Source: Theionarchaea archaeon (GTDB taxonomy: Archaea > Methanobacteriota_B > Thermococci > Methanofastidiosales > SZ-28-30). Taken from it: DNA of 64,000 nucleotides. A model generated the notes under the pieces. It saw only the letters and a list, made by a program, of their open reading frames with translations. It did no database searches and was not told the DNA's origin. The position numbers and the translations under genes were made by a program. The stretch's first letter is position 1; each line of letters opens with the position of its first letter. Positions 62,049 through 64,000 of this stretch are shown piece after piece. The DNA lies in contig JACVGT010000009.1 of NCBI GenBank assembly GCA_018992685.1, positions 36,247 to 100,246 of the forward strand, written 5' to 3'.

Positions 62049-63380
62049 TTAGAGAGCAGCATGTTCTACATCCGTGAGAACTGCATCTTTAGCTCTCCTG
62101 TAGGCACAAATATAGGGATCGTAGCAGGTGACCTTCTTTTCAAGGATAAAGGAGCTTGCGATGCACCCAACACACGTGGCGAGATACTTGCATCCTTTAC
62201 ACAGTCTCTCACTTTCCGTGCTCATTTTCCGGAGACTTTCCAGTGTCTTGCCATCCTCCCACAATCTGCCCAAATCTACATCTCTCACATTTCCAACACC
62301 CATTTCTTTGATGCATCCAGGACATGGGAGAATGGTCCCATCTGCATGGATGCAGATGGTAGTTCTGGCAAGGCCACATGTTGATTCTTTTTTCTGGCCT
62401 AGTCTTTGAAAAGCTTCAGGAAACTCCTTCTTCAAATAGGTGAGCTGAATCACAGTTATCTGATAGTACTCCTCCGGGGAGATAGCAAGCCCTTGGACCC
62501 CCCTGCCGGAGAACCTGACTGGAGTGAGCTGGAAATTCGTGAGGCCGTTGTCTTTGAAGAACCGGAGTATATCAATGATAGAGTCTTTGTTCAGCTGATT
62601 TACAGACACGTAAGGCCAAATAGGAAATCCAGCCTCCTTCAACAAGTTGATAGCATCGAGTGTCCTTCTCAGAGCTCCTTTCTTGCTTCTGAACTTATCA
62701 TGAACGTTCTCTTCCACACTGTCAATGCTGACAGAAAACCGCCTGACGTTGAGTTTTCTGAACTGTTCAACATGTTCTTCTGTGATGAGCGTTGCATTGG
62801 TAAAAATATCCACAATCATTGGCGCTTTTCTAGCATGTCCTATGATCGTGAATAGATCGGGGTGACAAAGAGGCTCTCCTCCACTTATCAAGAGCCGATA
62901 CACACCCATGGAGCTCAGTCTGTCAATAGTGGAGAGAATTTCAGCTGTGGTTAGTTCGTGAGGATATGGATTTCCAGAATCGTTTACACAATGCAAACAG
63001 TGGAGGTTACATCTGTTAGTGATTTCAATCTCGGCGGATTCAAGTGGATACTTCAGTTCTATGATTTTCATTCTCGAGCATTCATGGACAGGAGTAGATT
63101 CCAAGGTTATTATCCCTTTTTCTTGAGCTATCTTCAAGATCTCGCACACATCTTTCGCTACTTCCAATAAAGGTTCCCCAGAATGTTTGGAGAGAGAACC
63201 CATGATTTCCGATACAGAATGAACGCCGTTACATAGATCAAGCAAAGAAACAGTGGCAGGATTTGATCCGAATTCCTTCTCTGTAGTAGTATTGCAGATT
63301 TTTATCCGTTCCCCTGAATCAGTTTGTATCCGTGCATAGAAGATGTCCTCTCCAAGGAGAGGGTATTTGTTCTTCATCAT
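62049..63380 (-). CDS. Radical SAM/SPASM peptide maturase with N-terminal PqqD/RRE domain
   Basis: LLDLCNG..SVSEI (RRE), CNLHCLHC, SGGEP, SPASM C...G.ILPC...CKGC....C.GC. Confidence 0.92.
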   Translation of the reverse strand: MMKNKYPLLGEDIFYARIQTDSGERIKICNTTTEKEFGSNPATVSLLDLCNGVHSVSEIMGSLSKHSGEPLLEVAKDVCEILKIAQEKGIITLESTPVHECSRMKIIELKYPLESAEIEITNRCNLHCLHCVNDSGNPYPHELTTAEILSTIDRLSSMGVYRLLISGGEPLCHPDLFTIIGHARKAPMIVDIFTNATLITEEHVEQFRKLNVRRFSVSIDSVEENVHDKFRSKKGALRRTLDAINLLKEAGFPIWPYVSVNQLNKDSIIDILRFFKDNGLTNFQLTPVRFSGRGVQGLAISPEEYYQITVIQLTYLKKEFPEAFQRLGQKKESTCGLARTTICIHADGTILPCPGCIKEMGVGNVRDVDLGRLWEDGKTLESLRKMSTESERLCKGCKYLATCVGCIASSFILEKKVTCYDPYICAYRRAKDAVLTDVEHAAL

Positions 63381-63567
63381 GGAGCAAGTTATAGCTGACT
63401 CTTAAATACTTGCTCATTAACGCAGAACATGGAATTGTGAGAATCAATACGTTTGTCTTCGTTAAAAATTTCATTTTAGTCTGCTAAAAAAAATAATGTA
63501 AGTTAAGCAGCCCGAAAGTTTAAAAACCCTATTATCTCTCCTAGAGAAATGACAGGAGGTGACAACA

Positions 63568-63648
63568 ATGACATTTGAGTTGCTTGAACTCGGGGTTGTG
63601 AAACCACTGGGCTGCGATGACGACATTCCTGGCATCAAATTCATGTGA
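63568..63648 (+). CDS. Candidate RiPP precursor peptide (26 aa)
   Basis: BRE/TATA CCCGAAAGTTTAAA at 63511-63524, AGGAGGTG RBS; MTFELLELGVVKPLGCDDDIPGIKFM; T-rich terminator after. Confidence 0.65.
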   Translation: MTFELLELGVVKPLGCDDDIPGIKFM

Positions 63649-63857
63649 GGACATTGCCTCTCTTCATCACCGACTTTGTTTTATTTTTCCTATTTCTTTA
63701 TTTTCTTTCTGAATACATTGTTTGTATTGAGTAGATCCTGTTGCGCTGTTCACCAAGAGGCGACTTTCTCGTCTTATCCAGTGGGATTCTGCTATTTTAC
63801 AAGGAATGAGAAGTTGAATTCTTCCTCTCTTGTGCCATCCTCCGTTCTCAGTGACAG

Positions 63858-64000
63858 TGTAATAAGTAGGGACATGGGTAACAAAAGTAAGTAGAGACAT
63901 GGGTAACACTTTGGCAGAAGGTGATCCCATTGGACGTGGTAACAGAACGATGGAAATTACTCCAACTGCCAGAGGAAGAACACCTCACAGTGACAGAAGC
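63858..64000 (+). mobile_element. Left end of an IS481-like insertion sequence (truncated by window edge)
   Basis: TGT terminus; 21-bp repeat TAAGTAG(G/A)GACATGGGTAACA at 63863 and 63888; RBS and TTG at 63930 opening MDVVTERWKLLQLPEEEHLTVTE. Confidence 0.6.

Follow-up and report, generated by a model that had tools for sequence, protein, structure and literature searches.

The DNA stretch analysed here (the window) covers 64,000 nucleotides of a Theionarchaea archaeon contig. The locus under study comprises two genes, one coding for a radical SAM-SPASM maturase with an N-terminal RRE and the other for a short peptide (Table 1), which are divergently transcribed and separated by 188 bp. On its other side the enzyme gene adjoins a dihydrolipoamide-dehydrogenase-like gene. 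Behind the peptide gene the contig runs into an insertion sequence (IS), across which it continues into another contig of the same genome (C21), where the next gene codes for an ATPase. A second precursor past the contig end was considered, and none was seen in 14 kb of C21, nor any protease or exporter nearby; at the locus itself no protease or transporter was found either.

Table 1. Features of the maturase and peptide genes and of their surroundings (positions in the window).
Feature	Position	Strand	Basis
RRE-radical SAM-SPASM maturase, 443 aa	62049..63380	-	ORF, Pfam, homologues, AlphaFold model
N-terminal RRE, residues 1-95 (beta3 ~35-41, alpha3 71-87)	63096..63380	-	Modelled secondary structure, weak PqqD match, docking of a homologue's leader on the same segments
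Radical SAM core, Cys124/128/131	62559..63029	-	Pfam PF04055, residues 118-274; Cys invariant in 63/63 rows
SPASM domain, seven invariant Cys (335, 353, 394, 397, 403, 406, 425)	62106..62378	-	63/63 rows; CteB cysteines align
TATA-like box of the enzyme gene, ~28 nt upstream of ATG	63401..63408	-	Sequence only
BRE/TATA-like promoter CCGAAAG-TTTAAAAA	63512..63526	+	Sequence; TATA 49 nt upstream of ATG
Ribosome-binding site AGGAGGTGA	63554..63562	+	Sequence; GAGGTGA invariant in 9/9 aligned loci
26-aa precursor peptide: leader ~1-15, Cys16, 10-residue tail; most likely a diverged PKHP-Cys family member	63568..63648	+	ORF, leader profile and alignment; missed by HMM built without it
T-rich terminator-like run	63675..63709	+	Sequence; like feature behind homologous genes
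16-bp target duplication	63842-63857		Matches C21 end
Left end of IS481-type element, ends contig, not part of the system	63858..64000	+	Same sequence at five other contig ends; a relative matches LZ_Tnp_IS481

An earlier note on this DNA had proposed an RRE-radical SAM-SPASM maturase, and this assignment holds. The CxxxCxxC motif is found at residues 124-131, Pfam matches Radical_SAM (E 7.7e-31) and SPASM (E 6.1e-8) above cut-off, and ten cysteines, three in the radical SAM core and seven in the SPASM domain, are invariant in all 63 rows of the alignment. The PqqD/RRE-like N-terminus of the same proposal stands as a fold: in the AlphaFold model of the enzyme (pLDDT 93, pTM 0.91), residues 13-87 form three strands followed by three helices, which is the RRE layout. 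At the sequence level, however, the Pfam PqqD match is weak (E 0.0037, 18 bits, under the 23.4 cut-off); PqqD is listed for many homologues of the enzyme. The best structural matches of the model are SkfB, CteB and SuiB, and anSME is also among the matches. None of the NCBIfam maturase models reached its cut-off among the best 25 of 94 matches; TIGR04463 is not among these 25, and the AlbA, SkfB and StsB models score far under cut-off. The placement of its TATA-like box suggests that the enzyme transcript is leaderless.

The homologue search (E<=1e-60) returned 60 proteins: the window's own enzyme, 55 full-length proteins at 47-61% identity, one fragment and three proteins at 31-36%. Fifty-six RRE-radical SAM-SPASM proteins, named Theionarchaea or Methanofastidiosia, make up a tight clade, in which the enzyme is nested as sister to P0002/P0003 (SH-aLRT 100, from a quick IQ-TREE fallback run without bootstrap). 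Its branch length of 0.36 is within the range of the clade. The clade is present in two of the 31 relatives searched, and a search with the RRE part detected it in 2/133 genomes of the phylum, both from one genus, and not in the others searched. Cys356 was considered as an eighth cluster ligand and rejected as not invariant, being kept in 49/56 clade rows and replaced by Phe in all seven outgroup rows; Cys343 occurs in four of the 56 clade rows. Judged by eye, positions 343 and 354 of alignment A4, near auxiliary cluster I, tend to co-vary (Gly with Pro, Tyr with His), and this pairing could mark sub-families that differ in pocket or chemistry.

The 26-codon divergent reading frame described in the earlier note was found with the translation it had given, and the BRE/TATA element, ribosome-binding site (RBS) and T-rich terminator ascribed to it were all located (Table 1). 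Among 19 family genes, 17 have a TATA match 40-58 nt upstream of the ATG. The genome holds 28,593 ATG-initiated reading frames of 20-45 aa; 94 have an RBS match of at least seven bases, and 24 have in addition a T-run behind the stop. The window peptide is one of these 24, several others of which also adjoin radical SAM genes, and the frame with its signals is more than chance. A bacterial promoter and terminator scan missed these signals, as expected since they are archaeal. None of four RNA runs belonging to the same studies yielded a contig on this stretch, a result that is no evidence either way on expression.

A check proposed in the earlier note was whether homologous maturases have a conserved neighbouring peptide, and they do. 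In all eight clade loci with DNA (L007-L010 and L032-L035; L112-L115 repeat four of them and were excluded from the count), a short gene on the opposite strand, at most 300 bp from the enzyme, codes for 26-34 residues comprising an acidic leader, a PKHP motif, one Cys and a variable tail. The arrangement is divergent, as in the window, at four loci and convergent at four. By contrast, family matches at E<0.01 were found at 0/151 other radical SAM loci (best 0.49). More distant enzymes on three of four contigs (L011/L012, L013 and L037, not L036) are accompanied by the same leader with a CSSK core. Two further small genes were seen in these surroundings. Just upstream of the enzyme at L009 (1416-1472), a Cys-free frame of 14-18 codons with a doubled RBS is faintly precursor-like and possibly a remnant, and at L031 (879-1073) an unrelated Cys/Gly-rich gene of 64 aa with a strong RBS adjoins an orphan PKHP precursor.

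Two protein searches together with the loci yielded 116 distinct P[KR]HP peptides (131 entries), the window peptide being set aside. They range from 24 to 40 aa and follow the motif F-x-I-E-E-L-E-E-V-x-P-K-H-P-x(0-7)-C, in which the presence of PKHP in all 116 database peptides is due to selection. The Cys, part of the core read in the earlier note and the key residue here, follows PKHP by 0-7 residues in 115/116 peptides. Its conservation is not a search artefact, although the profile had a Cys column, since 94 of the 116 still pass the search threshold with the Cys masked; it is also found in 15/15 peptides identified by position alone. These 115 peptides divide into 60 of CSSK type and 55 hypervariable ones with tails of 7-16 residues. 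The leader codons are under purifying selection (pS 0.79 against pN 0.16, 19 genes). One genome (G002) carries 15 precursor genes and seven enzymes, and some of the precursors lie far from any clade enzyme, so that action in trans is likely. For a putative additional pair, P0007/P0119, matched through the equal length of their contigs, the tail is nearly identical to that of the sister enzyme L009, a single hint that peptide tails track enzyme branches. Elsewhere in G002 (C79; L198:555-2625), a CSSK precursor precedes a different radical SAM gene together with a PqqD gene that stands alone; the PKHP-Cys family may supply substrates to enzymes of more than one type.

The description of the peptide itself in the earlier note has to be revised. 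Its hydrophobic leader is an acidic one in the family, its Cys/Asp core is not that of the family, where Asp makes up 1.4% of tail residues, and its search motif FExxExG..PLGC is not the family motif, from which the window peptide departs at six of the first 16 positions. Its suggestion of a little-studied archaeal RiPP class fared better, as no Pfam or NCBIfam model of the family, or paper on it, was found. Indeed, Pfam gave nothing meaningful for 38 peptides (three weak single matches, E 0.08-0.3), 0/22 peptides match any NCBIfam model, and the ESM Atlas gave no usable match. The literature searched contained no account of the PKHP-Cys family, which subscription papers, supplements or the large rSAM-RiPP atlases could list. 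These more than one hundred short peptides form an archaeal family, undescribed in the literature searched, with a shared front end, one fixed Cys and very different tails.

The window peptide lacks KHP and has Leu in place of Glu6 and Gly in place of Glu9. It escapes a local HMM from whose alignment it was left out, and on the anchored profile it scores 6.7, where the lowest family score is 26.6; HMM matches at E 1.4e-7 and 1e-3 are circular, the peptide being present in those alignments, and were discounted as support. Its codons 1-13 align to the family without gaps, F3, L5, L8, V11 and P13 are kept, and the layout of promoter and RBS is shared. With a leader profile built without it, the peptide ranks seventh of the 28,593 small reading frames and first of the 7,664 with a Cys at positions 14-24. 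Its orientation and position match those at four of the eight homologous loci, and comparison with the family gives a pN of 0.47, below the pS of 0.74. No other family peptide was found in the genome, which is 91% complete, or beyond the IS. We consider the window peptide most likely to be a diverged member of the PKHP-Cys family and very probably the cognate substrate of the window enzyme.

A model of the leader-RRE complex was obtained for a homologous pair, L035, with a score of 0.76 against 0.02 for the best control; the mark applied is reached by 116/157 solved pairs and 2/215 mismatched pairs. At least 46% of contacts recur between runs, and the pLDDT of the partner is at least 47. Peptide residues 1-9 lie on beta3/alpha3 of the RRE and PKHP is outside the contact; the model is that of a homologue's pair, carries no information on the core and may have passed by resembling solved RRE-leader complexes. 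Peptide positions 5-6 are in contact with Arg36 and Leu83, whose equivalents in the window enzyme are Gly38 and Ala85. Together with the lost Glu6, these two residues would represent either co-variation or joint relaxation, in one case only. Alongside position, promoter and anchored leader score, the altered RRE contacts favour the window peptide as the cognate substrate, and the window pair provides a natural test of RRE-leader co-evolution.

The same residues could be read as decay, the family being real while this copy is degenerating or its peptide no longer serves this enzyme. The departure of six leader positions from near-invariant residues fits such a reading, as do the pN to the family (against 0.16 within it), the IS 210 bp downstream of the peptide gene and the two groove residues themselves, Gly38 standing where 40/55 homologues have Lys or Arg and Ala85 where 55/55 have Leu. 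However, the changed groove residues face the very positions of the modelled peptide where Glu6 is lost, which co-variation explains equally well. Moreover, despite saturation at synonymous sites the peptide gene keeps an intact frame, Cys, RBS, TATA and terminator, the enzyme retains its ten cluster ligands and has a branch length unexceptional for the clade, and neither the genome nor the sequence past the IS offers an alternative family peptide. Decay therefore appears quite improbable to us.

Other small genes and mobile elements were noted in the surroundings. The IS481-type element (window 63842-64000) recurs at G000 ends of C2, C3, C5, C6, C21, C23, C27, C28, C29, C33 and C34; target duplications of 16-17 bp at five paired sites give the contig order C14-C21, C2-C27, C3-C28, C6-C34 and C27-C29. 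At each of the five IS sites the duplication has a TATA-like run no more than a few bases away, which suggests that the element inserts just behind archaeal promoters. A second peptide family, ending in W-K-E-x-K-x-x-C-x, is encoded at G000 C3:57029, C19:17743 and C7:100360 and at L036:505; on the leader profile of the PKHP family its leaders reach scores as good as the window peptide's, which suggests a superfamily of leaders common to both. A 30-aa single-Cys peptide with a strong RBS converges on a B12-dependent radical SAM gene (G000 C39:714-806). It resembles the window peptide by eye and was rejected as a family member, given this neighbour and that the family profiles did not pick it. 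Orphan Gly/Pro-rich small genes of 28-31 aa with strong RBSs occur at G000 C18:14737, C19:6492, C22:4304 and C23:7631. Three homologues of an M50-like membrane protein, two of them with an HExxH motif, are encoded elsewhere in the genome beside other peptide clusters, whose peptides have leaders that score like the window peptide on the leader profile, so that processing could be shared.

Taken as a whole, the locus would be a minimal two-gene RiPP unit, in which the peptide is made from its own predicted promoter. The first nine residues of the leader would dock in strand form into the beta3/alpha3 groove of the RRE, as modelled for the homologous pair and by extension for the window pair. 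The single Cys would then bind auxiliary cluster I at the open iron left by its three Cys ligands, by analogy with CrpC, with CteB, whose open auxiliary site is bound by the substrate Cys according to the available part of PMC8172795, and with PapB/Tte1186, for which the available part of PMC10177961 describes this binding as demonstrated. The 5'-deoxyadenosyl radical would abstract a hydrogen from a residue on the C-terminal side of the Cys, and a single thioether ring would close (-2 Da). The acceptor would lie downstream because the spacer between PKHP and Cys can be 0, whereas the tail never has fewer than seven residues. Since the hypervariable tails conserve no residue type at any offset, it would most likely be a backbone alpha-carbon, or another carbon chosen without regard to the side chain, as opposed to an Asp/Glu carbon selected for its acid group; in the window copy, one of Asp17-19 may happen to serve. 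If the leader is removed and the product exported at all, this would occur in trans, possibly through one of the three RRE-like M50-type membrane proteases encoded elsewhere. Each enzyme appears to have changed along with the tail of its own peptide, a pattern suggestive of a diversified signal or weapon.

We give about an even chance to the reading that the enzyme closes a single thioether ring between the Cys and some residue downstream, whatever the side chain of the latter. A seven-Cys SPASM domain is not diagnostic, since TigE, which forms C-C bonds, also has one according to the available text of PMC10878394, and the assignment of the chemistry depends mostly on the invariant Cys of the substrate. 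Among 44 groups of hypervariable tails no residue is fixed at +1 to +7 (the commonest, Gly, in 11/44), and none of 20 shuffle tests revealed a convincing fixed acceptor class. Such variable tails are compatible with a sactipeptide link from S to the alpha-carbon. The 60 CSSK-type peptides conserve +1 to +6, and side-chain independence may hold for the hypervariable group only.

The Cys-to-Asp link put forward in the earlier note, an acid-directed ranthipeptide of the PapA/PapB or QhpC/QhpD type, now looks very improbable. The window tail does start with three Asp, 14/44 tail groups have Asp or Glu at +1 to +4, and acid-free tails are slightly rarer than in shuffles (16 against 19.9, P 0.03, one of 20 tests, uncorrected). 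Yet these 16 of the 44 groups have no acid at all, the L007, L010 and L032 peptides are members with acid-free tails, and Asp occupies +1 to +5 in 3, 2, 5, 1 and 1 of the 115 peptides; the window peptide has Asp at +1 to +3 and Ile at +4, and PapB requires Cys-X3-Asp and mostly fails on Cys-X2-Asp in the substrates covered by the available part of PMC8172795. Another partner for the Cys could be the His or Lys of PKHP or a Tyr, Phe or Trp of the tail, to which it would be linked, or for a link among which it would merely anchor the peptide. PKHP, found in all database peptides by selection, indeed lies outside the modelled RRE contact, Phe, Trp or Tyr is present in 42/44 tail groups, and Tyr-free tails number 10 against 14.9 in shuffles (P 0.014, uncorrected). 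This is unlikely, however, as the PKHP-to-Cys spacing varies, the window peptide has no His and its tail no Tyr, the aromatic class as a whole does not exceed shuffles (P 0.09) and CSSK tails give no such signal.

One invariant Cys with free flanks would also be accounted for if the Cys itself were oxidised to formylglycine, as by anSME, or otherwise converted without a ring. In anSME the auxiliary clusters are fully ligated, the SPASM domain has eight cysteines and the substrate motif is C-x-P-x-R. The presence of anSME among the structural matches fits such a conversion, but anSME has no RRE, the enzymes studied here have no invariant eighth Cys (neither Cys356 nor Cys343 qualifies) and Pro is at +2 in 5/115 peptides; we consider this distinctly unlikely. 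There is likewise a slim chance that the enzymes are sequence-agnostic macrocyclases, which would join the Cys to a position common to every tail, for instance the last residue, recognised through its carboxylate. PapB can also make a link to the C-terminal residue, in engineered substrates only, according to the available part of PMC12373016. If true, the rings would comprise 8-17 residues of freely varying content and be radical-made counterparts of Cys-closed quorum-sensing rings, acting as strain-specific signals among sediment archaea.

With the side-chain-independent thioether as the preferred reading, the family offers more than 100 natural substrates, alike in leader and single Cys, alongside some 56 enzymes that have apparently diverged with the tails; chemistry and specificity are thus testable with two genes and a peptide of 26-34 aa. 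If side chains play no part in the link, these enzymes are candidate general tools for peptide cyclisation and a starting point for studying chemical signalling among uncultured sediment archaea. Few archaeal radical SAM thioether systems have been characterised; CrpC is the one found in the literature searched.

Four known systems come closest to the one described here. CteB, the thermocellin maturase (PDB 5WGG, 5WHY), shares the RRE, the radical SAM core and the seven-Cys SPASM domain, with aligned cysteines and a Foldseek TM of 0.59. Identity is 16-18%, however, and the SCIFF precursor CteA has six conserved Cys, linked to Thr, whereas the peptides described here have one Cys and a hypervariable tail, lack the six-Cys pattern and, in the 22 searched, match no NCBIfam model. 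SkfB (PDB 6EFN), which acts on the sactipeptide precursor SkfA, is the top match to the window enzyme in both sequence (E 1.6e-41) and structure (5.6e-19). It makes one thioether and tolerates the acceptor side chain, as far as the available source describes; unlike the window enzyme, it has a twitch domain and not a full SPASM domain, the skf genes form a full operon that includes a protease and an exporter, and the skfB model scores 90 bits on the window enzyme against a cut-off of 300. With PapB, which modifies PapA to the ranthipeptide freyrasin, the likeness is that of leader-dependent Cys thioether chemistry, but PapA needs Cys-X3-Asp/Glu six times, and the Asp of that pattern has a counterpart in one of 115 peptides here, Ile taking its place in the window. 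CrpC of Methanococcus voltae is likewise an archaeal RRE-radical SAM enzyme with a seven-Cys SPASM domain that forms thioethers, and differs in that its substrate CrpA is a 29-kDa repeat protein with C-x-x-Q/D motifs, as described in the available part of PMC13692751.
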